Origin: Escherichia coli O127:H6 str. E2348/69
Lineage (GTDB): Bacteria; Pseudomonadota; Gammaproteobacteria; Enterobacterales; Enterobacteriaceae
Strand: one strand, 5' to 3'
Length of the DNA: 64,000 nt
Assembly: GCF_000026545.1 (NCBI RefSeq)
Contig: NC_011601.1
A model generated the notes under the pieces. The model ran no database searches and had not been told where the DNA came from. It saw nothing but the letters and a program-made list of their open reading frames with translations. A program made the position numbers and the translations under genes. Positions 33,873 through 49,155 of this stretch are shown here, piece by piece. Position 1 is the first letter of the stretch, and each line of letters begins with the position of its first letter.

Positions 33873-34637
33873 ATGAAAGATGAACGTCGCCCTATTTGCG
33901 AAGTGGTTGCAGAAAGTATCGAACGGTTAATTATCGACGGCGTACTGAAGGTCGGTCAGCCGCTTCCCTCGGAACGTCGACTGTGTGAAAAGCTCGGCTT
34001 CTCACGCTCCGCACTGCGTGAAGGGCTGACCGTGCTGCGCGGGCGCGGGATTATTGAAACGGCGCAGGGTCGCGATTCTCGTGTCGCACGGCTTAATCGG
34101 GTGCAGGACGCCAGCCCGCTGATCCATCTGTTCAGTACGCAGCCGCGAACGCTGTACGATCTGCTCGACGTTCGCGCATTACTGGAGGGCGAATCGGCAA
34201 GGCTGGCGGCAACGCTGGGAACGCAAGCTGATTTTGTTGTGATAACCCGCTGTTATGAAAAAATGCTCGCCGCCAGTGAGAACAACAAAGAGATTTCGCT
34301 GATCGAACATGCGCAGTTGGATCACGCTTTCCATCTCGCCATTTGTCAGGCTTCTCACAATCAGGTGTTGGTGTTTACACTGCAATCATTGACCGACCTG
34401 ATGTTTAATTCAGTGTTTGCCAGCGTAAATAATCTCTATCATCGACCACAGCAAAAAAAGCAGATCGATCGCCAGCATGCGCGGATCTACAACGCGGTGT
34501 TGCAGCGGCTGCCGCACGTCGCCCAGCGCGCAGCACGCGATCATGTGCGGACCGTGAAAAAGAATCTCCACGATATCGAGCTGGAAGGCCACCATTTGAT
34601 TCGCTCGGCGGTGCCGCTGGAGATGAAGCAGGGGTGA
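33873..34637 (+). CDS. glcC: GntR/FadR-family transcriptional activator of the glc operon
   Basis: 254 aa from ATG at 33873; N-terminal winged HTH (PSERRLCEKLGFSRSALREGL). Confidence 0.85.
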   Translation: MKDERRPICEVVAESIERLIIDGVLKVGQPLPSERRLCEKLGFSRSALREGLTVLRGRGIIETAQGRDSRVARLNRVQDASPLIHLFSTQPRTLYDLLDVRALLEGESARLAATLGTQADFVVITRCYEKMLAASENNKEISLIEHAQLDHAFHLAICQASHNQVLVFTLQSLTDLMFNSVFASVNNLYHRPQQKKQIDRQHARIYNAVLQRLPHVAQRAARDHVRTVKKNLHDIELEGHHLIRSAVPLEMKQG

Positions 34638-34643
34638 CTGTCA

Positions 34644-35786
34644 TCAAATCTGCTTTTCATACAATCGGTAACGCTTGTACGGCTCCGCCCCAATGCGTTC
34701 CAGCATGTTATTCATGCCTGTATTGGTTTCGAGGATCCATGACATTTCCAGCGCATCGATCTTCCGACGGGCAAACGGATCGCGTAAGGCTTCAATCAAT
34801 AACAGCGCAATTACCGGGCCGATGCGGCTGAACTGATACTCGTCCCGCACGCCCATCAGCGGTACTCGCGCAGTTCGCACACCGCTGACTTTCAAACGCC
34901 ACAGCAATTTTGCCCAGCCGAAGGGAAAGAGCGATCCGTTCAGATCGGCAATCGCCTCGTTGATGTTCGGCAAGCCGACAATAAACGCGCAGGGTGCAGA
35001 ATCAATCTCAGCGATGTAGATCATATCGTCCGGCACCAGATATTTAAGTTGATCGCCCATGGTCGCGAATTCATGTTCGGTAAACGGCACAAATCCCCAG
35101 TTGTGCTGCCAGCCAGAATTGAAAATCTCACGCAGGATCTGCATCTCTTCGGCAAACCGCTGGCGATTGATGCAGCGAATGGTCACCTTTTTGCGCACCT
35201 GATCCATCAGTTTTTTTAGCGCCGGAGAGAAAGTGAGATCGGTTCGCTGCATCCACCACGCCAGTAAATCAATGCCTTTGTGATAACCCAGTTGTTCAAT
35301 ATGCGCGGCATACCACGGTTTGCCGTGTGGCATCATCGCACAGGGCGGAGTGTCAAAACCTTCAATCAGTAATCCGCTTTCCTGATTGATATTCAGGCTG
35401 AAAGGCCCGCTGATCTTACTTGCACCTTGTGACTTTAACCACGCTTCCGCTGTACCAAACAACGCGGCAAAAACCTGCGGATCATCAATGGCGTCAATCA
35501 TGCCGAAATGACCGGTATCTTCACCGTAACGCTCACGGTGCAAGGTATCTATTTGCGCGGTAATACGCCCAACTATCTGCCCCGCTTTTTTTGCCACCCA
35601 CGCCTGCCAGATGATATGGTCCGTCCCCGGATTCTTCGCAGACAAATGCTCGTTGCGTTCAATGAATAAAGGGGGTATCCAGTTTGGATCGTCGGGATAA
35701 AGTGATGACGGAAAAGCGATAAATGCCTTAAGGTCATTTTTATTAATTACTTTTTCAATTTTAATCATCAGCAGATCGCATTCCAT
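34644..35786 (-). CDS. yghO: YghO, intact 380-aa putative N-acyltransferase
   Basis: Full-length ORF starting at ATG 35786, convergent with glcC and divergent from the lipid operon; the acyltransferase assignment is inferred, not from a visible motif. Confidence 0.55.
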   Translation of the reverse strand: MECDLLMIKIEKVINKNDLKAFIAFPSSLYPDDPNWIPPLFIERNEHLSAKNPGTDHIIWQAWVAKKAGQIVGRITAQIDTLHRERYGEDTGHFGMIDAIDDPQVFAALFGTAEAWLKSQGASKISGPFSLNINQESGLLIEGFDTPPCAMMPHGKPWYAAHIEQLGYHKGIDLLAWWMQRTDLTFSPALKKLMDQVRKKVTIRCINRQRFAEEMQILREIFNSGWQHNWGFVPFTEHEFATMGDQLKYLVPDDMIYIAEIDSAPCAFIVGLPNINEAIADLNGSLFPFGWAKLLWRLKVSGVRTARVPLMGVRDEYQFSRIGPVIALLLIEALRDPFARRKIDALEMSWILETNTGMNNMLERIGAEPYKRYRLYEKQI

Positions 35787-36147
35787 AGTTCTGTGGGTAA
35801 CAAATAATTAACGGTGACAAACAGGTTGCAACAGCAACGAACGGCACCTTAACAATCAACCCAATGAATACAAACGACGAATAAATAGTATTATTAATGA
35901 TTACGATAAGGTCAGAGACTACACAGAAGCGCCTCAATGCCTTTTGTCGATTTAAGGCGACCGGACAAGGCTTCTTCTTAATATATTCATAAATTAAATA
36001 TCATTCACAAAAAAACTCAAACTCATTATTTAAATCAATGTTCATTTTCACACTGATGAAAATACTATCTCATTTATCTTTTATGCCTATATAATCCACC
36101 GCATTATTGTCATTTTATTTTGGATATCCAATTTTTTCGTGGTGTAT

Positions 36148-37872
36148 ATGTCTAATAAAATCTTTACGCATTCCCTACCTATGCGCTATGCCGATTTTCC
36201 AACGCTGGTTGATGCTTTGGACTACGCCGCTCTGAGTAGCGCCGGAATGAATTTTTATGACAGACGTTGCCAACTTGAAGATCAACTGGAATATCAGACG
36301 TTAAAAGCGCGTGCCGAAGCTGGTGCGAAGCGGTTGTTATCGCTGAACCTGAAAAAAGGCGATCGCGTGGCGCTGATTGCCGAAACCAGTAGCGGGTTCG
36401 TAGAGGCTTTTTTTTCCTGCCAGTATGCCGGCTTAGTCGCCGTCCCGTTGGCGATTCCAATGGGCGTCGGTCAGCGGGATTCCTGGAGCGCCAAACTGCA
36501 GGGTTTACTGGCAAGTTGCCAGCCCGCAGCCATTATCACTGGTGATGAGTGGTTGCCACTGGTCAATGCCGCGACGCATAACAACAACCCCGAATTACAT
36601 GTTTTAAGCCACGCCTGGTTTAAGGCATTACCGGAAGCCGATGTTGCGCTCCAGCGTCCAGTTCCAAACGATATCGCCTACCTCCAGTACACCTCCGGCA
36701 GCACCCGTTTTCCCCGTGGCGTCATTATCACCCATCACGAAGTGATGGCTAATCTACGTGCTATAAGCCACGATGGCATTAAATTACGCCCTGGCGACCG
36801 CTGCGTCTCCTGGCTGCCTTTCTACCATGATATGGGACTGGTCGGCTTTCTCCTGACCCCCGTCGCCACGCAGCTTTCAGTAGATTATTTGCGCACTCAG
36901 GATTTTGCCATGCGTCCTCTGCAATGGCTTAAATTGATCAGTAAAAATCGCGGCACCGTTTCCGTTGCACCGCCGTTTGGCTATGAATTGTGCCAGCGCC
37001 GCGTGAATGAAAAAGATCTCGCTGAACTGGATCTTTCCTGCTGGCGCGTCGCTGGTATTGGAGCAGAACCGATCTCCGCAGAACAACTCCATCAATTCGC
37101 TGAATGTTTTCGTCAGGTTAACTTTGACGATAAAACTTTCATGCCGTGCTACGGACTGGCAGAAAATGCGCTGGCTGTCAGCTTCTCTGATGAAGCCTGC
37201 GGGGTTGTGGTTAACGAAGTGGATCGCGACATCCTCGAATACCAGGGTAAAGCCGTCGCGCCGGGTGCTGAAACACGCGCCGTATCGACTTTCGTCAACT
37301 GCGGTAAAGCGTTGCCGGAACATGGCATTGAAATCCGCAATGAAGCAGATATACCTGTCGCGGAACGTGTGGTAGGCCATATTTGCATCTCCGGCCCCAG
37401 CCTGATGAGCGGGTACTTTGGCGACCAGGTTTCGCAAGACGAGATTGCCGCGACGGGCTGGTTAGACACCGGCGACCTTGGTTATCTGCTGGACGGTTAT
37501 CTGTATGTCACCGGACGCATTAAAGATCTGATTATTATTCGTGGCCGTAATATCTGGCCGCAGGATATTGAATACATTGCGGAACAGGAACCGGAAATTC
37601 ATTCTGGCGATGCGATTGCTTTTGTTACCGCCCAGGAAAAAATCATTTTGCAGATCCAGTGTCGGATCAGCGACGAAGAACGTCGCGGGCAGCTTATCCA
37701 CGCGCTGGCAGCTCGGATCCAAAGCGAATTTGGCGTTACCGCGGATATCGATCTGTTGCCGCCCCACAGTATTCCCCGAACATCCTCCGGCAAGCCTGCC
37801 CGTGCGGAAGCGAAAAAACGTTATCAGAAGGCTTATGCTGCCAGTCTTCATGTGCAGGAATCCCTGGCATGA
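36148..37872 (+). CDS. Fatty-acyl-AMP ligase / acyl-ACP synthetase (adenylate-forming enzyme)
   Basis: AMP-binding signature YTSGSTRFPRGVIITHHE; 574 aa from ATG 36148; stop overlaps the next start (ATGA at 37869-37872). Confidence 0.75.
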   Translation: MSNKIFTHSLPMRYADFPTLVDALDYAALSSAGMNFYDRRCQLEDQLEYQTLKARAEAGAKRLLSLNLKKGDRVALIAETSSGFVEAFFSCQYAGLVAVPLAIPMGVGQRDSWSAKLQGLLASCQPAAIITGDEWLPLVNAATHNNNPELHVLSHAWFKALPEADVALQRPVPNDIAYLQYTSGSTRFPRGVIITHHEVMANLRAISHDGIKLRPGDRCVSWLPFYHDMGLVGFLLTPVATQLSVDYLRTQDFAMRPLQWLKLISKNRGTVSVAPPFGYELCQRRVNEKDLAELDLSCWRVAGIGAEPISAEQLHQFAECFRQVNFDDKTFMPCYGLAENALAVSFSDEACGVVVNEVDRDILEYQGKAVAPGAETRAVSTFVNCGKALPEHGIEIRNEADIPVAERVVGHICISGPSLMSGYFGDQVSQDEIAATGWLDTGDLGYLLDGYLYVTGRIKDLIIIRGRNIWPQDIEYIAEQEPEIHSGDAIAFVTAQEKIILQIQCRISDEERRGQLIHALAARIQSEFGVTADIDLLPPHSIPRTSSGKPARAEAKKRYQKAYAASLHVQESLA

Positions 37873-38783
37873 ATCAAACTGTCGCGGTGACGGGCGCTAC
37901 CGGGTTTATCGGTAAATATATTATTGATAACCTGCTCGCCCGCGGCTTTCACGTTCGCGCATTAACGCGTACTGCCCGCGCTCACGTCAATGATAATCTC
38001 ATCTGGGTGCGCGGTTCGCTGGAAGATACACATTCGCTTAGCGAACTGGTTGCCGGAGCCAGCGCGGTGGTCCATTGCGCCGGACAAGTGCGCGGACACA
38101 AAGAAGAGATTTTTACCCGCTGTAACGTTGACGGCAGCCTGCGCCTGATGCAAGCGGCAAAAGAGAGCGGCTTTTGCCAACGTTTTCTGTTTATCTCTTC
38201 GCTGGCGGCGCGCCATCCCGAACTCTCCTGGTACGCAAATTCCAAACACGTCGCCGAACAACGACTGATCGCAATGGCTGACGAAATTACGCTGGGCATT
38301 TTTCGCCCGACAGCCGTGTATGGTCCCGGCGATAAAGAGTTAAAACCGCTGTTTGACTGGATGCTGCGCGGCCTGCTGCCACGACTTGGTGCGCCAGATA
38401 CACAACTCTCTTTCCTGCACGTCACCGATTTTGCGCAAGCAGTGGGTCAGTGGTTAAACGCCGAAACTGTACAGACGCAAACCTATGAATTATGCGATGG
38501 CGTCGCTGGCGGCTATGACTGGCAACGCGTACGACAGCTTGCCGCCGAAGCCCGTTGTGGTTCTGTGCGGATGGTTGGCATTCCTCTGCCGCTACTCACC
38601 TGCCTTGCGGATATCAGTACTGCGTTGAGTCGCCTGGCAGGTAAAGAACCTATGCTGACCCGCTCGAAAATTCGTGAATTAACCCACGCCGACTGGTCGG
38701 CAAATAATAACCGTATTTCTGAAGATATTAATTGGTTTCCCGGGATTAGCCTGGAACACGCATTACGCAACGGGCTATTTTGA
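37869..38783 (+). CDS. NAD(P)-dependent epimerase/dehydratase-family (SDR) reductase
   Basis: Rossmann motif VAVTGATGFIGKY at the N-terminus; 304 aa; translationally coupled to the ligase. Confidence 0.75.
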   Translation: MNQTVAVTGATGFIGKYIIDNLLARGFHVRALTRTARAHVNDNLIWVRGSLEDTHSLSELVAGASAVVHCAGQVRGHKEEIFTRCNVDGSLRLMQAAKESGFCQRFLFISSLAARHPELSWYANSKHVAEQRLIAMADEITLGIFRPTAVYGPGDKELKPLFDWMLRGLLPRLGAPDTQLSFLHVTDFAQAVGQWLNAETVQTQTYELCDGVAGGYDWQRVRQLAAEARCGSVRMVGIPLPLLTCLADISTALSRLAGKEPMLTRSKIRELTHADWSANNNRISEDINWFPGISLEHALRNGLF

Positions 38784-38814
38784 TTGTCTTGTTTAAAGGT
38801 GTGTTAACGTTTCT

Positions 38815-39063
38815 ATGGTAAATCGTGAAATAGTAATGGATTACATCCTTTCCTGTTTACAGGATTTGGTCGAAAACGGTGTGGAAATTAAGCCCGACAG
38901 CGATCTCGTCAACGATCTTGGCCTGGAGTCGATCAAAGTGATGGATCTCTTAATGATGCTGGAAGACAGATTCGATATTTCCATTCCTATTAATATTCTG
39001 CTGGATGTCAAAACCCCTGCGCAATTAATGGAAACTCTACTTCCATGGCTGGAGAATAAATAA
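38815..39063 (+). CDS. Acyl carrier protein (dedicated ACP)
   Basis: 82 aa with phosphopantetheine-attachment motif DLGLESIKVMDL; stop overlaps the next start (TAATG). Confidence 0.75.
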   Translation: MVNREIVMDYILSCLQDLVENGVEIKPDSDLVNDLGLESIKVMDLLMMLEDRFDISIPINILLDVKTPAQLMETLLPWLENK

Positions 39064-40235
39064 TGGGGCTATACGATAAATATGCGCGCCTTGCTGGCGA
39101 GCGCCTGCAATTTAGTGATAACGGGTTAACACCATTTGGCACCTGTATTGATGAAGTATATTCCGCCACCGAAGGCCGGATCGGCAATAAAAAAGTGATT
39201 CTGGCCGGGACCAATAATTATCTCGGTTTAACCTTTAATCATGATGCTATCCGCGAAGGTCAGGCAGCGTTAGCGGCCCAAGGCACTGGCACCACCGGTT
39301 CTCGTATGGCAAACGGCAGTTATGCGCCGCATCTGGCGTTAGAGAAAGAGATTGCCGAGTTTTTCAATCGCCCTACCGCTATCGTTTTTTCAACCGGTTA
39401 TACAGCTAATTTAGGCGTCATCAGCGCACTTGCCGACCATAACGCCGTGGTGTTACTGGATGCCGACAGCCACGCCAGTATTTATGACGCCTGTTCTCTC
39501 GGCGGCGCAGAGATTATTCGTTTCCGCCATAATGACGTCAACGATCTGGAACGGCGCATGGTCCGCCTCGGTGAACGGGCGAAAGAGGCGATTATTATCG
39601 TTGAAGGCATCTACAGTATGCTCGGTGACGTTGCGCCGCTGGCAGAAATTGTTGATATCAAACGTCGTCTCGGTGGTTATTTGATTGTCGATGAAGCACA
39701 TTCGTTTGGCGTGTTAGGCGTAACAGGCCGCGGACTGGTTGAAGCCGTTGGCGTTGAAGACGACGTGGATATTATCGTCGGCACCTTCAGTAAAAGTTTG
39801 GCTTCCATTGGTGGTTTTGCCGTGGGTTCAGAAGCGATGGAAGTGCTGCGCTACGGCAGCCGCCCGTATATTTTTACCGCCTCTCCTTCTCCGTCCTGCA
39901 TTGCGACCGTGCGCTCGTCGTTAAGAACCATTGCCACACAACCAGAGTTGCGGCAAAAACTGATGGATAACGCCAACCATCTGTATGACGGTCTGCAAAA
40001 ACTGGGTTACGAGTTAAGTTCACATATTAGCCCGGTAGTGCCAGTAATAATCGGTTCGAAAGAGGAAGGTTTACGCATCTGGCGCGAGCTTATTTCGCTG
40101 GGCGTTTATGTGAATCTTATCCTGCCACCTGCCGCGCCTGCAGGCATCACGCTGCTGCGCTGTAGCGTAAACGCTGCCCACAGTCGTGAGCAAATCGATG
40201 CCATCATTCAGGCATTTGCTACTCTGAAGCAGTAA
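39063..40235 (+). CDS. Alpha-oxoamine synthase-family PLP enzyme (serine palmitoyltransferase / BioF / Kbl-like)
   Basis: 390 aa with PLP-lysine motif GTFSKSLASIGGF and a glycine-rich N-terminal region; 1-nt overlap with the ACP stop. Confidence 0.8.
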   Translation: MGLYDKYARLAGERLQFSDNGLTPFGTCIDEVYSATEGRIGNKKVILAGTNNYLGLTFNHDAIREGQAALAAQGTGTTGSRMANGSYAPHLALEKEIAEFFNRPTAIVFSTGYTANLGVISALADHNAVVLLDADSHASIYDACSLGGAEIIRFRHNDVNDLERRMVRLGERAKEAIIIVEGIYSMLGDVAPLAEIVDIKRRLGGYLIVDEAHSFGVLGVTGRGLVEAVGVEDDVDIIVGTFSKSLASIGGFAVGSEAMEVLRYGSRPYIFTASPSPSCIATVRSSLRTIATQPELRQKLMDNANHLYDGLQKLGYELSSHISPVVPVIIGSKEEGLRIWRELISLGVYVNLILPPAAPAGITLLRCSVNAAHSREQIDAIIQAFATLKQ

Positions 40236-40240
40236 TGTGA

Positions 40241-40269
40241 ACCCGCCGTGGTGTTGCGCCACGGCGGGT
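40241..40269. terminator. Bidirectional hairpin terminator between convergent operons
   Basis: 11-bp perfect stem ACCCGCCGTGG / CCACGGCGGGT with a 7-nt loop, directly after the oxoamine synthase stop and abutting the LptG-like stop. Confidence 0.55.
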
Positions 40270-41349
40270 TTAATGTTGTCTGTCATGCCAATACACCAGG
40301 CTCAACGCCACCAGCACAAACGCTACCGGTAAACCGAGCGCGGTAACAGGTGCGCTCAACGCAAATAGCAATCCCAGATTGACCATGATTTGATAGCTGA
40401 TCCAGGTGAGTAAACCAACGATGACCCCTACAGCGAGACGGCTACCCATCCTAGGCGAGCGCGGGGCACTAAAGGTAAACGGCACAGCCAGCAAAATCAT
40501 CGCCAGAGTCAAGATGGGTTGCCCCAGTTTTTCCCACAGTGCAAGGCGGTATTCGCTGCTGGGTTGCCCGGTTTCCTGCAAATAATGGATGTAATGATTA
40601 AGCTGACGGACAGAAAAAGTATTTCCCGGCATCGATAACTCTTCAAGATTCATACTGGTGAAGGTCGATTGCCAGGCAAGATAATCAGATGTTTCCTGCG
40701 TTTCTTTGCCATTCAGCCATTTTTTATGATTCACACCATGCAGGATCCACGTTTTGTCATCTTCAATGGTGGCACTGCGCGCATAAATGTAGGATTCGAG
40801 CGAGAGATCATCGCGGTAATGAAATATCTCCACGTCCACCGGCTGGCCCTGCTCGTTCAGCGATTTCACCGTCACAAATTCATTACCACGCCTGGCCCAC
40901 AGCATATTGCCGGTAATGTCATCGTCCTCCCCCAACGCAGTGGCAGTCGATTTGATTTGCAGCGCCTGTTGCTGCAATGGCGACGCCACCCACTCATCTA
41001 TCGCGCCTAATGAAACAGTCCACAATATCCCGGCAACCAGCGCCACCAGTGCAATACGGAAGATAGAAAACCCCGTGCTGCGAATGGCGGTAAGCTCACT
41101 GTTTTTCGATAACTGCCCCAGGCCGACAATCCCTCCCAATAAGGCGATAAACGGCGAAAGTTCGACCAGTGTGCGCGGTAAGGTCATCAGCACCACCAGC
41201 ACCGCCTGAGTCCAGCGATAACCACCCGGGCTGACATCATCCAGTTCGTTAATCAGGTTGAAGGTGGTAAAAAGCGGCAGCAATAGCCCTGCGGCGGCGG
41301 CAAAACCGAGAAAGAGATGACGGATTAAATAGCGACTGAAAACATTCAT
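40270..41349 (-). CDS. LptG-like permease (YjgP/YjgQ family)
   Basis: About 359 aa from ATG 41349 (ATGA overlap with upstream gene); N-terminus MNVFSRYLIRHLFLGF resembles LptF/LptG-type permeases. Confidence 0.65.
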   Translation of the reverse strand: MNVFSRYLIRHLFLGFAAAAGLLLPLFTTFNLINELDDVSPGGYRWTQAVLVVLMTLPRTLVELSPFIALLGGIVGLGQLSKNSELTAIRSTGFSIFRIALVALVAGILWTVSLGAIDEWVASPLQQQALQIKSTATALGEDDDITGNMLWARRGNEFVTVKSLNEQGQPVDVEIFHYRDDLSLESYIYARSATIEDDKTWILHGVNHKKWLNGKETQETSDYLAWQSTFTSMNLEELSMPGNTFSVRQLNHYIHYLQETGQPSSEYRLALWEKLGQPILTLAMILLAVPFTFSAPRSPRMGSRLAVGVIVGLLTWISYQIMVNLGLLFALSAPVTALGLPVAFVLVALSLVYWHDRQH

Positions 41350-42416
41350 CGGGAAAATTTCTGCAGCAAAGAGAAGTCGCGTGCGACCAACATCAGCAGG
41401 CCCATTAGCATGAGTCCGGGTACTAACCACAAACCAGGAATGAGGGGAATCGCGCCGTTAGCCACCAGCGTACGGCAGACGTCGCCGCCATAAAAAATGG
41501 CAACAAACAGCAACGTCAGTGGCAATAACGTTGAAAATCGCCCTTGCCGCGGTTTTACCCGACTTAATGAAATGGCCAGCAGCGCCATCAACAATGCTGT
41601 CAGGCCACGGCTTTGTCGCCATTGCAGTTCGGCATGATCGGCAGGAAAGGCGGAGCGCGCCAGCTCCGTGACCGATTTTGCTTTGCGTTTGACGTTAGGG
41701 CTTTGATCCAGCGGATTCAGATGTAATTGCAGATTACGGTAGATCTGTTCGTTGTCGTCACGCCCCTGATGATCGAGAAGATAGGCGGTCCCGTTATGCA
41801 ACATAACGGTCGGTTTCTCAGGTGATGGGTCAACCACATCAACCGAACGGGCGCGGAAAATGCGGGTTCGATTAGCAGTAGAAGTATAAATCAGCGCGTC
41901 AGTCAGGCGATTATTATCCTGATCAACCGTCTGCGAAAGGATCATTCGTCCGTTATCGTTAGTGTTAAATTGCTTTGCCCGCAACTGGCGAACATCCAGC
42001 TCCGACTGTGACTGTTGCTCCAGTTGATAAATCTGCGCATAAGCCCACGGACGACCATACATCGACAGAAGGGTGACAAAAATACTTAGCGGTATCGCCA
42101 GATAAAGAACGGCTTTGTACAAGCGTCCCGGACTGCCCCCCGCCGCAGAGATAGCGGTAATTTCCGAGTCGGTATACATCTGCCCTAGCGTCACGCCAAC
42201 TGACACATACAGTCCAACAGGTAACAACATCTCCAGTGCAATCAGCACTTTGTAGAAAACGATATCCAGCACAACATCAAGAGCTAATGTCCCATTTGCC
42301 GCTTCGGTCAGATAACGCTGTGCGGAGTAGCTGGCGAAAATAAAGATCAGAAAACCGACGATAATCAGCACCAGACGGCGCGTACCACGCATGATGTAGT
42401 GTTCAACCAGCTTCAT
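41346..42416 (-). CDS. LptF-like permease (YjgP/YjgQ family)
   Basis: 356 aa, MKLVEHYIMRGTRRLVLIIVGFLIF...; paired with the LptG-like gene. Confidence 0.65.
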   Translation of the reverse strand: MKLVEHYIMRGTRRLVLIIVGFLIFIFASYSAQRYLTEAANGTLALDVVLDIVFYKVLIALEMLLPVGLYVSVGVTLGQMYTDSEITAISAAGGSPGRLYKAVLYLAIPLSIFVTLLSMYGRPWAYAQIYQLEQQSQSELDVRQLRAKQFNTNDNGRMILSQTVDQDNNRLTDALIYTSTANRTRIFRARSVDVVDPSPEKPTVMLHNGTAYLLDHQGRDDNEQIYRNLQLHLNPLDQSPNVKRKAKSVTELARSAFPADHAELQWRQSRGLTALLMALLAISLSRVKPRQGRFSTLLPLTLLFVAIFYGGDVCRTLVANGAIPLIPGLWLVPGLMLMGLLMLVARDFSLLQKFSR

Positions 42417-42445
42417 CTCACTAACGCCCTCAATCCTTTGAATTT

Positions 42446-43009
42446 TTATTCATTGATCAGCTTCTGCGCCAGCGCAATGACATGATCTACCTCTTCCGGC
42501 GTCAGGCTGCCGTCCTTTGCCCACTGAATTTGCCCGGTTTTATTCAGCACCAGAATGGTTGAACTCTGCTCCTGCAAGTGCCAGGCAACGCGTCCCTGTC
42601 CATTGCCGTCAATAACGAATTGCGCCCATGGATAGCGGCGTTTATTTTTTTCGATTTTGCCAACGACAAAATAGCCGGTACCAAAGATGGCATCATCAGT
42701 GTTCACAATGGTGGTGGGCTGAAAACGATCCTGCGGAAAGTTTGCCGCTTCAACTGCTTTAATTAACAGTGAGTTCTTTTTCTTCGCCGACTTACGCCCG
42801 GCGATATACTGAATAATGCGAACTTTTCCTGCCAATTGGGTGCTGTTCCACTTTTGGTAGTGAATTTCGTCGTCGCTATTCCGAAGCAGCTCGCCGCCTT
42901 CCTGGATATAAACGGGGGTAACCGTTTTGCCAGTGACGAAATTGTGTGCCTGCACACCCGGGGCTAAGAGCATGATAATCAGCGCAATAATCAAACGAGA
43001 TGACATCAT
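42446..43009 (-). CDS. YtfJ-like periplasmic protein
   Basis: 187 aa with a signal peptide; conserved stretches (TTIVNTDDAI, QWAKDGSLTPEEV) closely resemble E. coli YtfJ as recalled from memory. Confidence 0.55.
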   Translation of the reverse strand: MMSSRLIIALIIMLLAPGVQAHNFVTGKTVTPVYIQEGGELLRNSDDEIHYQKWNSTQLAGKVRIIQYIAGRKSAKKKNSLLIKAVEAANFPQDRFQPTTIVNTDDAIFGTGYFVVGKIEKNKRRYPWAQFVIDGNGQGRVAWHLQEQSSTILVLNKTGQIQWAKDGSLTPEEVDHVIALAQKLINE

Positions 43010-43017
43010 TGCTCCGG

Positions 43018-43842
43018 TTATAGCGGAAAACGCGAAATCAGCAGTTCTAAGCGCTGGCGAATATCGCTATCCAGCGCCATCGGTGCATCATACGACTGGC
43101 GGTTTTCCATATCATCCGCCACCATGTCGTCGTGTTTATCCCCCATCAGGCCATTAATGGCGGCGAGGAAGCGGGAAATCTGTAACGCCTCTTTATTTTC
43201 AGGATCAAGCGATCTTAAGGTGTCGTAATAAGAAACCTGCTGGCTGATGATTTTTCGCACATCATGAAATTCCCTGCCAGTTAGTTGCGGTTTAGCAATA
43301 ATCTCTTTCAGGATGTACATTTGCTTCTGGCGGTAGGCGATAAAACCGTTCACGGTTTCTAACTGGCTATGGCGCAATGAATAGTTCACCAGCCACCAGA
43401 CAGGGGAGCTCAAATAAACACGTAACAGGTTACCGTAAAACGACACAATATTTTTCTTACCGTTACGAAAGCCATCCTGAAAATGCCCAAGAAAAACGGT
43501 CGTTTTGCCGAATAAAAATCCAGCCTGATGCTTCTTTAAATACAGCCGTTGCGCAAAACGCAGATGCTTGTAGCGCGCTCGCATGTATTTAAACTGTTTG
43601 CGCTCGTCTGTCGTCAGCTCATCGCCTTTCGCCTGTTTGCGGATTAAACGCAGTAACTCCTGACGATTAACACCATCCAGCCAGAATTTCAGGCATAACG
43701 CGTAATTATCATGGATGATTTCGGTGGTACAACTTAGTGCGATAGTCGGCGGCAAACTGACCTGTGCATCAACAACATCATCTTCTTCAATCGCAACAAA
43801 TAGACGCTCGCTCGCCTCAAGCGGGAAATATTTTCTCATCAT
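43018..43842 (-). CDS. Hypothetical protein (274 aa)
   Basis: ORF in operon context between yghQ and the YtfJ-like gene; no motif recognised by eye. Confidence 0.5.
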   Translation of the reverse strand: MMRKYFPLEASERLFVAIEEDDVVDAQVSLPPTIALSCTTEIIHDNYALCLKFWLDGVNRQELLRLIRKQAKGDELTTDERKQFKYMRARYKHLRFAQRLYLKKHQAGFLFGKTTVFLGHFQDGFRNGKKNIVSFYGNLLRVYLSSPVWWLVNYSLRHSQLETVNGFIAYRQKQMYILKEIIAKPQLTGREFHDVRKIISQQVSYYDTLRSLDPENKEALQISRFLAAINGLMGDKHDDMVADDMENRQSYDAPMALDSDIRQRLELLISRFPL

Positions 43843-45191
43843 CAGGATTTCTCTCCGGTTGAGTTATAAAGCAAGGAATGGCGCTGAAAAAATGCCTTTA
43901 AGGTCGGAATTAGCGAGAGCACCACATCCAGACATTGCCCACCGAAGTAAGCAAATGCAGCCCCCAGCACGCCAAACAGATGACAGAACATGAACAGCAA
44001 TACGATGTAGCCGATTGAGGCGATGGTTTGCGCCACGAGAAAAGCGCGCTGTTTTCCCGCCATCAATAGCAATGACTCCTGTGGGAAGCCCAGCATCGAA
44101 ATCACAATTGCGCCCAGCATCACCTGAATCAGGTCATACGCTTCGAGATACTTAACGCCAAACACCAGCGAAATGAGCGGCTTGCCGACGATCAACACCG
44201 CGAGCGCCACCAGAATACCGATTCCGCCCGCCAGTAAACCGGACTTCACGCCTAACAACCACGGTCTGGTGGTGCGTGGATCTAAACGCATCACCTCTGG
44301 ATAAAAACTTTTGCCCAGTAAACCCGCTGGCGTTCCGGCGGCATCGAAGAATGTCATGGCGATTTTAAATAACCCGACAGCAGCGGGTCCTAACACGATC
44401 CCCACCAACACTGTGCTGCACGAGTTACGCGCCGACCAGATGGAGTGGGCAATGTTGGTTGACCAGACAAAACTCCACGCGCCTTTAATGTGTCGGGCAG
44501 ACTCAAACAGATTCAATTTGAAGGCGTTATGGATATTTCTGCGGCGTAATTCGCGCGCGGCAAACCACCAGTACATGGTGCCGCCAACCAGATTCGACAC
44601 GTACCAGGCAATAACAAAACCCGCAAAACCAAAGTCAAAATACCAGGCTACGACGCTCCCCGCTGCGCGCAGAAAAGGTTTCGTCGCCTGCTGTACAGCA
44701 ATCAAATCAAAGCGATCTACCGCACGCAGAATGCCGGTCGGCGTGGAGGAAGCCATTGAAGGAATGAGCGTGCAATAGAGCGCCGCCAGCCAAAAGCTTT
44801 GGTCATCCAGACCTAATGAATGGGAAAGGAATGGCAGTAAGGCAATGCCGCCGACAATCGCCACCGCGCCGCTGACGATATCCAGCGAGAAGGAAAATGA
44901 GACAACATTGCGAAATTGCTGCGGATTATTGTTGGTCAAGGCCGGCGTTCCGTACTGGACCACCAGTTGCCATGTCTGAAACTTAATAAAATCGCTGATC
45001 GATTTGGCGTACGATTGCACAATTACCAGTACGCCAAACATGGCGGGCGTCATCCCTTTACCGGCACACGAGAGCGCCAACAGCCCCAGCAAAGCGCTCA
45101 CAACATTACTGGAGCCTAACCAGGCGCTATTGCGAATAATGGTGCGAAACGCGCCATCTGCAAACCAATGTTTGATGTTTAAACCCGCCAA
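43842..45191 (-). CDS. yghQ: YghQ, MOP-superfamily (Wzx/MurJ-like) polytopic flippase
   Basis: 449-aa multi-TM protein directly downstream of yghR; longer than my recollection of the K-12 product. Confidence 0.7.
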   Translation of the reverse strand: MAGLNIKHWFADGAFRTIIRNSAWLGSSNVVSALLGLLALSCAGKGMTPAMFGVLVIVQSYAKSISDFIKFQTWQLVVQYGTPALTNNNPQQFRNVVSFSFSLDIVSGAVAIVGGIALLPFLSHSLGLDDQSFWLAALYCTLIPSMASSTPTGILRAVDRFDLIAVQQATKPFLRAAGSVVAWYFDFGFAGFVIAWYVSNLVGGTMYWWFAARELRRRNIHNAFKLNLFESARHIKGAWSFVWSTNIAHSIWSARNSCSTVLVGIVLGPAAVGLFKIAMTFFDAAGTPAGLLGKSFYPEVMRLDPRTTRPWLLGVKSGLLAGGIGILVALAVLIVGKPLISLVFGVKYLEAYDLIQVMLGAIVISMLGFPQESLLLMAGKQRAFLVAQTIASIGYIVLLFMFCHLFGVLGAAFAYFGGQCLDVVLSLIPTLKAFFQRHSLLYNSTGEKS

Positions 45192-45236
45192 TTCAGCCTG
45201 ACCTTATCGTTGATAGTAAAAAGTATCCCGCCAGCC

Positions 45237-45995
45237 TTAAGTTAAACTTCGGCGGTCAGAAACGATGGCAACCAGAGAAACCGCCTTCTGTGCCTGTTCC
45301 AGCACCTCGCTGTAAGGCGCTCTGGAATCAATCTCAAGAATTTTTGTGCCGTTATAGCCAATCGTCGACATGACGCCGATTTTGTCCTGCAGCTCGGCAT
45401 AGTCATGGTCAGGCTTGCGGGAGATGGCAGTATCAATATCAATCCCCAAGCGAATGATTAATTCAGGACGGTATTGCGCCATTTGTTGGTATAAGCGCCG
45501 TTCGCGCTGCGCCAGAAACATGCTGATTTTCCCGGTCGCACGTTCGACGCCGATCCCCGGTCCGTCATAATAAAAGCCCGAAATTTCAGCCTGCGGGAAG
45601 CGATCGCTGACCACCAGAACGCCACTTTGCGCCAGTCGCTGAACCTTGCGCAGATTCGCCATTCTTCGCAGCGAGAAGCAGTACATAATCACCGCCGCCC
45701 ATAGCGCCGGAGATTTGGTTTTCATGCTTTGGGTTTTCGAGGATTTGGCCGCCAGTCGCCGTTCCAGCCAGACGCCAACCAACGGCAACCGTTTGATTTT
45801 GTCGCCGTCTTCGCCTGAGAGCAGCCCCAGATAGCGGCGCTCGGTTTGCCAGTGTTGTTGCAGCGATTTCACCAGGTCAGTGGTCAGTGTGGATTTACCG
45901 GTGCCATCACACCCGACCACCGCAATCAGCCCCGGAATGTAGTTGGGCTGCGGCGCGGTTGTACTCTTAACAGTTTGTGTTTGTAGTGCATCCAT
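45237..45995 (-). CDS. yghR: YghR, P-loop kinase-like protein (thymidylate-kinase-like fold)
   Basis: Walker A VGCDGTGKSTL plus DRF/Y motif (VVSDRFPQ). Confidence 0.75.
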   Translation of the reverse strand: MDALQTQTVKSTTAPQPNYIPGLIAVVGCDGTGKSTLTTDLVKSLQQHWQTERRYLGLLSGEDGDKIKRLPLVGVWLERRLAAKSSKTQSMKTKSPALWAAVIMYCFSLRRMANLRKVQRLAQSGVLVVSDRFPQAEISGFYYDGPGIGVERATGKISMFLAQRERRLYQQMAQYRPELIIRLGIDIDTAISRKPDHDYAELQDKIGVMSTIGYNGTKILEIDSRAPYSEVLEQAQKAVSLVAIVSDRRSLT

Positions 45996-46026
45996 TCGTT
46001 AAATCATCCCCTATCCATTTTGGTGA

Positions 46027-46740
46027 TCAGGAAAGCGCGGCGTGAATTGCGCGTAGTGACGCTTGCAGAATTTCATCGGCTGGTTGCCGACCATCCAGTT
46101 CAAGGATCTTTGCGCCATTGAATGTCAGTTGCGGCGTAACGGCGATTTTTTCCTGTAACGCTGCCAGTTGGTGGTCAGGTTTACGCGCAAACGCGGTTTG
46201 TTCATCAATGCCAAGACGAATCAACAATACGGGCAAATAAGACGCCATCCATTGGTACAGCTTCAGCTCGCGCTGCCTTAACATTTTTATCCAACCGTTA
46301 CCGCCCGTGGTTTTTGCCAATTGCGGGCCATCAAAGCGAAAACCCGGCACTTCAACCTGCGGGTAGCGGTCGGTGATGAGCAGATAGCCTTGCTGGCTTT
46401 TACACAACATTTTGCGAAACTTGTACGCCCGCCAGCAGGAAAGCAGATAGATAACCAGCGCAGTAATATTGCCAGGCGGTGTTAAGGGCTTTTCGTGCAC
46501 ATGTGCCGCTTTACTTCGCAAATAACGCCCAAAAGGTGCGCCAATAACAGGGAGCTGTGAAATCCATTCGCCAATTCGCCCGGACGATTGCCCGAGATAA
46601 ATGTGTTCTGTTGGCATTCTTGATGCCAGTTCATTTACCAGGCTTGCCGTGAGGGTCGATTTACCTGAACCATCACATCCTACAATGGCAATAACACGCA
46701 CTGGCGTGGAATTAATTATTGACATATTACGTTGATTCAC
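46027..46740 (-). CDS. yghS: YghS, P-loop kinase-like protein, paralog of YghR/YghT
   Basis: Walker A VGCDGSGKSTL plus LITDRYPQ. Confidence 0.75.
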   Translation of the reverse strand: MNQRNMSIINSTPVRVIAIVGCDGSGKSTLTASLVNELASRMPTEHIYLGQSSGRIGEWISQLPVIGAPFGRYLRSKAAHVHEKPLTPPGNITALVIYLLSCWRAYKFRKMLCKSQQGYLLITDRYPQVEVPGFRFDGPQLAKTTGGNGWIKMLRQRELKLYQWMASYLPVLLIRLGIDEQTAFARKPDHQLAALQEKIAVTPQLTFNGAKILELDGRQPADEILQASLRAIHAALS

Positions 46741-46914
46741 GAAAAACCCGGCAGCAAATAATGTATTGAATATTACGTGGTCCGTGCTCAGAATATCCGT
46801 TCAACCTTATTGTGACAATGGTTAATTGTGACATTGACCTGAATTACGCTTTCATCAAAAACATATTAACCAAATAAATATTTTGGATGGACATTTAAAT
46901 TTAAGGATATATTC

Positions 46915-47607
46915 ATGCAGTCAATAATACCTCCATTAATTGCCGTTATTGGTAGCGATGGTTCAGGCAAGTCAACGGTGTGTGAACATCTTATTACCGT
47001 TGTCGAAAAATATGGTGCTGCCGAAAGGGTTCATTTAGGAAAACAGGCCGGAAATGTCGGTCGTGCAGTGACAAAATTACCGTTGATGGGAAAATCCTTA
47101 CATAAAACAATTGAACGAAATCAGGTAAAAATAGCAAAAAAATTGCCGGGACCAGTTCCGGCGCTGGTAATTACAGCGTTTGTCGCCCGCCGCTTACTGC
47201 GCTTTCGTCATATGCTTGCCTGTCGTCGTCGCGGGTTAATTGTTTTAACCGACCGTTATCCGCAGGAACAGATTCCTGGCGCTTATGATGGTACGGTGTT
47301 CCCGCCTAACGTTGAAGGTGGTCGTTTTGTCTCATGGCTGGCAAGTCAGGAACGTAAAGCATTTCACTGGATGGCGAGCCATAAGCCCGATCTGGTCATC
47401 AAACTCAATGTCGATCTGGACGTAGCCTGCGCGCGTAAGCCTGACCACAAAAGAGAATCGCTGGAAAGGAAGATAGCAATAACGCCACAGTTAACCTTTG
47501 GAGGCGCGCAACTGGTTGATATCGATGCCAATCAACCGCTGGAACAAGTGCTGGTTGATGCGGAAAAAGCGATTACGGATTTTATGACCGCGCGTGGTTA
47601 TCACTAG
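46915..47607 (+). CDS. yghT: YghT, P-loop kinase-like protein, paralog of YghR/YghS
   Basis: Walker [12 protein letters not shown] plus LTDRYPQ; ATG with an AAGGA ribosome-binding site upstream. Confidence 0.75.
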
Positions 47608-47617
47608 TCAAAAATGG

Positions 47618-47648
47618 AAATGCCCGATCGCCAGGACCGGGCATTTTC
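47618..47648. terminator. Bidirectional intrinsic terminator shared by yghT and pitB
   Basis: Stem AAATGCCCG / CGGGCATTT with an 11-nt loop, flanked by an A-run upstream and a T-run downstream. Confidence 0.5.
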
Positions 47649-47655
47649 AGGAAGG

Positions 47656-49155
47656 TTAAATCAACTGCAATGCTATCCAGTACAACCCACCAGAAAGAAA
47701 AATCGCCGCCGGTAAAGTAAATACCCACGCCATCAGGATGCTGGTTACCGTTTTACGCTGTAACCCACCGCCGTCCACCACCATCGTCCCTGCTACTGCA
47801 GACGAGAGTACGTGTGTTGTGGAGACGGGCATCCCAATATAACTGGCAAGGCCGATAGACACTGCCGCCGTCATCTGTGCCGCCATGCCTTGCGCATACG
47901 TCATGCCGCGCTTACCAATCTTCTCACCGATGGTCATCGCTACACGACGCCAGCCAATCATGGTGCCGATGCCGAGCGCCAGTGCTACCGCCATGATGAT
48001 CCATACCGGTGCGTACTCAATGGTGCTTAACATATCGCTGCGCAGTTTTTTCAGCAGGTTCTGGTCTTCTTTACTGACGCCTGGCAGTTTCGCCAGCTTC
48101 GCGGAGGTATCAGAGATGCACAGCATAATGCGGCGCAGCTGGCTGCGCTGACTCACGCTTAACGGCTCGTAACTTTCCATATTGCCTGGCAGCATCGTTT
48201 TAACGCGCGCAATCGCATCAAAGGTATTTGCCGGATGACAGTGAAACTCTGTTACTTGCGTGCCATCAGTCGATGTCGCAGGCAATGGAGGTTCCATCGT
48301 AATCAACTTCTGCGGCAGTTCAGGATGCTGTTGCAGGTAGTGTTCGAAGTTGGTGACGGCATCGCGGGTACGGGTAATTTCATAGCCGGACGCATTCATA
48401 TTGACGACAAACCCGGCGGGAGCAATCCCCACCAGCACCAGCATCACCAGACCAATTCCTTTCTGCCCGTCGTTCGCGCCGTGCGAAAACGCCACGCCCG
48501 CAGCGGAAACAATGAGGGCAATACGCGTCCAGAATGGCGGCTTACGTTTGCCTTTTTTCTTTTGGCGATCTTCCGGAATGCGGTGAATACGGTCACGCTT
48601 TTTCGTCCCGCTCCAGTAGCGACGCAGCAGAAAAATCAGCCCCCCCGCAATCACCAGCCCCACGATGGGGGAGACAATGAGTGAAGAGAAAATCTTGGTG
48701 ACTTCGCGCAGGTTTAACGCATCCATCACCGACGAACCATTTAACAGCGCGTTGGTTAAACCGATGCCGATAATCGCACCAATCAAAGTGTGCGAACTGG
48801 AGGCCGGTAAACCAAAGAACCACGTTCCCAGATTCCAGATAATCGCCGCCAGCAGCATGGAAAAGACCATCGCCAGACCGTGAGTTGACCCCATATTCAG
48901 CAACAAATCGGTTGGCAACATATGGACGATGGCATAGGCAACGCTAAGCCCGCCAAGCAATACGCCAAAAAAGTTAAAAAATGCCGCCATGACTACAGCA
49001 AGCTGTGGTTGCATGGCACGGGTATAAATAACGGTTGCCACCGCATTCGCTGTGTCATGAAAACCATTGATTGCTTCATAGAACAACACAAATGCCAGAG
49101 CAAGTAATAACAAAAGCCCCGTATATATATCAAGGCCAACAAATAAATTTAGCAT
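47656..49155 (-). CDS. pitB: Low-affinity inorganic phosphate transporter
   Basis: 499-aa PiT-family transporter with [15 protein letters not shown] motif; pitB rather than pitA by genomic context. Confidence 0.85.

Follow-up and report, generated by a model that had tools for sequence, protein, structure and literature searches.

A probable dihydroceramide biosynthesis locus of the proteobacterial type in Escherichia coli O127:H6 E2348/69

Organisation of the locus

A stretch of 64,000 nucleotides from the chromosome of Escherichia coli O127:H6 str. E2348/69 (contig NC_011601.1; hereafter the window) was found to harbour five adjacent genes, yghO, aasR, cerR (epi), acpR and spt, together with a convergent gene array that extends beyond them (Table 1). 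A reading made previously from the sequence alone had proposed that the five genes specify a sphingolipid-like or other N-acyl-aminolipid. Our analysis indicates, with a probability that we place at roughly 85%, that the locus encodes the proteobacterial ('rhodobacterial') dihydroceramide pathway; the assignment of its genes to ceramide synthesis is correct, and is already known.

The open reading frame (ORF) listing and the RefSeq coding sequences of E. coli E2348/69 (NZ_CP059840.2), to which the 5.6-kb stretch of the five genes is 100% identical, agreed on all five genes at the coordinates first proposed. The translational coupling claimed for the plus-strand genes was upheld at two of their three junctions, namely an ATGA overlap between aasR and cerR (37869-37872) and a TAATG overlap between acpR and spt (39061-39065), but not between cerR and acpR, which are separated by a 31-nt spacer without overlap. 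The strong hairpin described at the end of the array was also recovered, with a folding energy of -30.3 kcal/mol over its 16 pairs (z = -5.95 relative to shuffled sequences). Its U-tract is weak, and the stop codon of the convergent lptG paralogue begins within it, at 40270; the hairpin may act as a terminator. In the divergent region between yghO and aasR the G+C content falls to 0.43-0.46, and no consensus promoter on the plus strand passed the scan of this region. No Rfam RNA families were detected in positions 33000-48500. The annotated start of aasR varies by strain, with the ATG of E2348/69 yielding a protein of 574 residues and the methionine annotated in E. coli BL21(DE3), 12 codons downstream, one of 562; an alternative in-frame GTG is located at 36139.

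Table 1. Features of the sphingolipid locus and the adjacent array, with coordinates in the window
Feature	Coordinates	Strand	Description	Size	Model match
yghO	34644-35786	-	bCerS/Aca homologue, predicted N-acyltransferase	380 aa	
divergent intergenic region	35787-36147		AT-rich; presumed to hold the yghO and aasR promoters (putative role)	361 bp	
aasR	36148-37872	+	specialised fatty acyl-AMP ligase / acyl-AcpR synthetase	574 aa	
cerR/epi	37869-38783	+	extended short-chain dehydrogenase/reductase (SDR), predicted reductase of the 3-keto group	304 aa	
acpR	38815-39063	+	dedicated acyl carrier protein	82 aa	
spt	39063-40235	+	serine palmitoyltransferase	390 aa	
hairpin	40238-40272		G+C-rich, between convergent spt and lptG2	16 bp	
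lptG2	40270-41349	-	lptG paralogue		TIGR04408, 305 bits
lptF2	41346-42416	-	lptF paralogue		TIGR04407, 320 bits
YtfJ-family gene	42446-43006	-	YtfJ-family protein, probably periplasmic		TIGR01626, 212 bits
CHAD-like gene	43018-43842	-	hypothetical protein, CHAD-like all-helical fold	274 aa	
yghQ	43842-45191	-	MOP-family flippase-like membrane protein	449 aa	weak NCBIfam MOP flippase match
yghR and yghS	45237-46740	-	P-loop kinase-like paralogues		sub-threshold dTMP-kinase and AAA matches
yghT	46915-47607	+	third P-loop kinase-like paralogue		

Identity of the enzymes and the proposed pathway

The pyridoxal phosphate (PLP)-dependent alpha-oxoamine synthase is Spt, as judged from its family scores, its ranking against solved structures and its conserved catalytic residues. 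When compared with profiles of the Spt, BioF, Kbl and ALAS families, as the sequence-only reading had suggested, it passed the Spt model alone, scoring 597 bits against NF047599, the NCBIfam equivalog for serine palmitoyltransferase of the proteobacterial type (cutoff 500), and falling under the cutoffs of the sister families (bioF 334/426, kbl 298/460, ALAS 218/339 and CqsA-type 226/428). In a sequence search of the PDB the closest solved structures were the Sphingomonas serine palmitoyltransferases (approximately 377 bits), followed at a distance by a cysteate-C-fatty acyltransferase (28eh, 208 bits), E. coli Kbl (185 bits) and E. coli BioF (180 bits). Residues H137, D210, H213 and K244 aligned with H159, D231, H234 and K265 of the S. 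paucimobilis enzyme (SpSPT), these being the His/Asp/His set and the PLP lysine, and SpSPT Arg390 is conserved within the motif LLRCS. The protein is 98.5% identical to ECD_02854 of BL21, and RefSeq labels the gene spt in every genome sampled.

A synthase that condenses cysteate, glycine or alanine, and so yields a sulfonolipid, a 1-deoxy base or some other N-acyl aminolipid, or that is simply a BioF or Kbl paralogue, is most improbable. The alpha-oxoamine synthases are a promiscuous family, the cysteate enzyme, Kbl and BioF are all detectable relatives, and a leucine replaces SpSPT Arg378 (NLILPPA in the E. coli protein, NMARPPA in SpSPT); against this stand the family scores and structure ranking given above, and the finding that the near-identical BL21 enzyme incorporates [14C]serine (PMC9386255). 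The BioF/Kbl and sulfonolipid (cysteate) candidates were rejected on the family scores and the published serine incorporation, and with the ceramide reading upheld, the vaguer N-acyl-aminolipid label is not needed.

The other three plus-strand products were likewise in keeping with their proposed roles. AasR passed the NCBIfam fatty acyl-AMP ligase model PRK09192 (867 bits, cutoff 600), as expected of the ligase first proposed, and is 95.6% identical to BL21 ECD_02851 (AasR_Ec). The call of an SDR-family reductase was borne out in CerR by both a GATGFIG motif (GxxGxxG) at residue 9 and a YANSK motif (YxxxK) at residue 122; its matches in NCBIfam, to HpnA and OleD-type reductases, were all sub-threshold, and it is 95.7% identical to ECD_02852. 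The CerR N-terminus leads directly into the Rossmann motif and a signal peptide is not evident. AcpR, which matched the NCBIfam acyl carrier protein families below threshold, carries the serine attachment motif DLGLES expected of a dedicated carrier and is 100% identical to ECD_02853.

YghO, 99.5% identical to BL21 ECD_02850, had no match in Pfam or NCBIfam. Its predicted structure adopted a tandem-GNAT acyltransferase fold with a pLDDT (a measure of prediction confidence) of 96.6, in line with the acyltransferase originally suspected. The genomic context of its homologues was surveyed with a profile built from a 19-sequence alignment and scanned against one genome per GTDB species, and yielded no fewer than 596 confirmed loci; the 80 top-ranking ones, which lean towards closer relatives, were retained, and the window proteins were then sought by tblastn (at least 50% query coverage, E <= 1e-5) within 10 kb of each YghO homologue. 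In this set spt was present at 41 of the 80 loci, aasR at 40, acpR at 39 and cerR at 38, and an LptG-like gene was found at 46 and an LptF-like gene at 41, counts in which the LptF/G paralogues and the housekeeping copies of other genomes are pooled. The genomes with these 80 loci span many phyla, with Entero-, Pseudomonas-, Nitroso-, alpha-, delta- and other lineages represented, and an arrangement of spt-acpR-cerR-aasR with yghO divergent recurred in Enterobacterales, Pseudomonas, Nitrococcus, betaproteobacterial metagenome-assembled genomes (MAGs) and alphaproteobacteria. YghO belongs with the sphingolipid genes, because its homologues adjoin spt, acpR, cerR and aasR across these lineages, and on homology, predicted fold and context it would be the N-acylating orthologue of bCerS/Aca.

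Some YghO homologues were far longer than that of E. coli (P0121, 784 aa; P0133, 630 aa; P0191, 940 aa), and among these long proteins one contained two YghO-like stretches and others bore additional N- or C-terminal regions, which suggests possible fusions with other partners. On one metagenomic contig (L005, 1321-2124) a homologue with 50% identity to YghO precedes a gene of the nucleotidyltransferase family NTP_transf_3 and, after it, an LptF/LptG pair, an order which hints that nucleotide-activated head-group chemistry may occur in some versions of the locus.

The sequence-only reading had taken this locus to be overlooked; in fact a description of it in BL21(DE3), with part of its biochemistry, was published in 2022 (PMC9386255), and RefSeq names its spt gene. 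Padilla-Gómez et al. 2022 identified aca (yghO, ECD_02850), aasR (ECD_02851), epi (ECD_02852), acpR (ECD_02853) and spt (ECD_02854) in that strain, and of the genomes which they compared, those of Caulobacter and E. coli BL21 were the only ones in which the five dihydroceramide genes formed a cluster (PMC9386255). AcpR_Ec incorporated beta-alanine, a precursor of 4'-phosphopantetheine, and hence carries that group; SPT_Ec converted [14C]serine to a product co-migrating with 3-oxosphinganine and preferred palmitoyl-AcpR to palmitoyl-CoA or palmitoyl-AcpP as acyl donor; AasR_Ec was reported to be specific for AcpR; and AasR_Ec, AcpR_Ec and SPT_Ec together formed 3-oxosphinganine in vivo (PMC9386255). 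The route from fatty acid through acyl-AcpR to 3-oxosphinganine has thus been demonstrated by others, on proteins of BL21(DE3) near-identical to those encoded here. Compounds migrating like sphinganine and ceramide were also seen, formed 'possibly by intrinsic enzymes' ECD_02852 and ECD_02850, the latter of which 'might be' the N-acyltransferase (PMC9386255).

In the pathway that we propose, AasR would adenylate a free long-chain fatty acid and load it onto AcpR, and Spt would then join the acyl-AcpR to L-serine in a condensation that releases CO2 and yields 3-oxosphinganine. YghO is predicted to attach a second acyl chain to the amine and CerR/Epi to reduce the 3-keto group, a reduction which homology and context point to in E. 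coli. The order of these two steps is disputed, with acylation first and a periplasmic CerR advocated in Caulobacter (PMC11087976) versus a eukaryote-like order (PMC9386255). The product would probably be passed to the convergent array, with its flippase-like yghQ and lptF2/lptG2, for delivery to the outer membrane. For E. coli the export of the product is putative, as are the native synthesis of the lipid and its timing.

Several points weigh against this interpretation. The leucine at the SpSPT Arg378 position has been mentioned; E. coli CerR is just 34% identical to Caulobacter CC_1164, and the activities of YghO and CerR are predicted; the literature searched contained no account of a sphingolipid made natively by E. 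coli; and BL21(DE3) with an empty vector displayed no new lipid, 3-oxosphinganine having appeared on overexpression only (PMC9386255). Given this last result, the locus may not be expressed under standard culture conditions.

Distribution of the locus and the convergent array

An intact but cryptic pathway, silenced or induced only in a particular niche and giving neither sphingolipid nor phenotype under ordinary conditions, is accordingly to be considered, and we regard it as a tentative possibility, somewhat short of an even chance. It would account for the normal lipid profile of empty-vector BL21(DE3), and is in keeping with the AT-rich regulatory region that lacks a consensus sigma-70 promoter on the plus strand. 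In addition, K-12 and approximately one quarter of complete E. coli genomes are without all or part of the locus, with no obvious harm. The extent of the loss in K-12 was established by alignment: the genome lacks window positions 35747-44122 (8376 bp) and has IS5 in their place, the deletion ending within yghQ at 44122 and removing aasR, cerR, acpR, spt and four more genes. This agrees with the IS5 copy and truncated neighbours attributed to K-12 at the outset, in that IS5LO of MG1655 is flanked by a yghO truncated by 40 nt at the 5' end and a yghQ truncated at the 3' end; yghRST are still present in K-12, where the synthesis genes are missing.

Arguing against a cryptic pathway is the conservation of the locus. 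Some match to the 5.6-kb stretch was present in 4592 of the 5426 complete E. coli genomes, at least 80% of it was retained in 4068, and other Enterobacterales keep the locus at 60-87% identity. All 13 ORFs from yghO to yghT were intact, with 94-100% conservation in strains of distant phylogroups. Such conservation speaks for purifying selection and, with it, for use in some setting.

Convergent with spt is a seven-gene minus-strand array, tightly packed with gaps of no more than 45 nt or overlaps (lptF2 and lptG2 overlap by 4 nt), beyond which yghT is divergent. LptF2 and LptG2 match the LptF and LptG models, yet differ strongly from the housekeeping pair, at 28.8% identity to K-12 LptF and 27.8% to K-12 LptG respectively. 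RefSeq names the two genes lptG and lptF, 'LPS export ABC transporter permease', though they are second copies, and lptB is not present near them. In a 2026 preprint the Caulobacter LptF2/G2 proteins, which pair with LptB and are deletable only when spt is absent, were implicated in sphingolipid export, and Figure 2B of the same preprint depicts E. coli UTI89 with its 'sphingolipid operons'. By analogy, lptF2/lptG2 of E2348/69 are likely to encode sphingolipid transporters of the LptF2/G2 type.

The YtfJ-family gene lies directly upstream of lptF2 and was co-located in 7 of the 80 loci, exclusively in Enterobacterales; its product, in which a signal peptide was judged by eye from the translation, could from the position of the gene be a periplasmic partner of the LptF2/G2 transporter. 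The gene yghQ, named 'lipopolysaccharide biosynthesis protein' by RefSeq, was present in 11 of the 80 loci. YghR gave only marginal P-loop matches in Pfam, and sequence searches of solved structures returned nothing significant for YghS or the YtfJ-like protein. YghS and YghT scored 25-31 bits against the dTMP kinase cutoff of 83, and the RefSeq name 'dTMP kinase' is probably wrong for both. The yghRST genes nevertheless adjoin the spt cluster, in shuffled positions, in Erwinia (L009), Rosenbergiella (L011), Mangrovibacter (L016), Serratia (L008, where yghT is directly beside spt) and a betaproteobacterial MAG (L037), which suggests that they may constitute a module for head-group synthesis or handling. 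They look to be the sole part of the locus that is undescribed.

It is conceivable, though rather doubtful in our estimation, that the final product is a head-group-modified anionic (phospho)sphingolipid, with YghR, YghS, YghT and the CHAD-like protein involved in its synthesis and YghQ and LptB2F2G2 in its export, in which case the functional unit would be the 13 genes of 34644-47607. The tight packing of the minus-strand array, the persistence of yghRST beside spt despite their shuffled position across genera, their occurrence in a betaproteobacterial MAG, and the CHAD-like fold of the 274-aa protein are consistent with this proposal, as is the Caulobacter cluster, which likewise includes head-group genes, a flippase and LptF2/G2. 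It is opposed by the sub-threshold kinase-family matches of YghR, YghS and YghT, by the lack of a significant solved-structure relative of YghS by sequence, by the persistence of yghRST in K-12 without the synthesis genes, and by co-location in only 10 of the 80 loci. In a stronger form of the proposal, which we consider unlikely, wild E. coli, including the enteropathogenic (EPEC) strain E2348/69, would use this 13-gene unit for the native production of an outer-membrane sphingolipid that bears a modified head group and is probably anionic. YghR, YghS, YghT and the CHAD-like protein would then assemble or process a head group containing phosphate, with YghQ as the flippase for the lipid and LptB2-LptF2G2 as the machinery for its extraction, possibly in concert with the YtfJ-family protein. 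No earlier description of any of these accessory roles exists.

For the dihydroceramide pathway itself, the assignment of the genes is already known to the field. The textbook E. coli lipidome derives from K-12, in which the locus was lost via an IS5-associated 8.4-kb deletion; roughly three in four complete genomes of the species retain it. Should the pathway operate in vivo, the outer membrane of commensal and pathogenic E. coli would contain ceramide-type lipids, with a possible bearing on envelope robustness, antibiotic permeability and host signalling.

Relationship to known sphingolipid systems

The cluster ECD_02850-ECD_02854 of BL21(DE3) is the same entity in another strain, in that it occupies the same chromosomal locus between glcC and yghQ with the same gene order, and the E2348/69 proteins are 95.6-100% identical to its products. 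The two differ in that one belongs to a B strain and the other to EPEC, and in the shorter annotation of BL21 aasR.

The likeness to the Caulobacter set (Spt, AcpR, AasR, CerR/Epi and bCerS/Aca) which the sequence-only reading had drawn matches the published orthology table, in which the E. coli and Caulobacter proteins share identities of 44% (Aca; E 1e-107 for ECD_02850 against CC_1154), 42% (AasR), 34% (Epi), 41% (AcpR) and 53% (Spt) (Table S2 of PMC9386255). The C. crescentus region CC_1152-CC_1168 encodes Spt (CC_1162), AcpR (CC_1163), Epi/CerR (CC_1164), AasR (CC_1165) and Aca/bCerS (CC_1154), and shares with E. coli the LptF/LptG paralogues (LptF2/G2/C2 in Caulobacter) and a flippase-like gene (CC_1166). 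E. coli, however, is without LptC2, no homologue of the head-group proteins CpgA-C was noticed, and yghRST, the YtfJ-family gene and the CHAD-like gene are carried instead. Native lipid products are established for Caulobacter, whereas the E. coli pathway is known from its genes and from overexpression.

The soluble serine palmitoyltransferases of Sphingomonas paucimobilis and S. wittichii (PDB 2JG2 and 2X8U) align with E. coli Spt over the full length, with the PLP lysine and the His/Asp/His residues kept; they differ in the arginine at SpSPT 378, which is leucine in E. coli, and in that the E. coli enzyme favours acyl-AcpR over acyl-CoA. The pathway of Bacteroidetes and eukaryotes (Spt, KDS reductase and CerS) shares with that of E. 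coli the first reaction and the class of product. The E. coli locus differs from it in the acyl donor of Spt, a dedicated acyl-ACP, and in having no Lag1-type ceramide synthase, N-acylation being assigned instead to a predicted tandem-GNAT protein.

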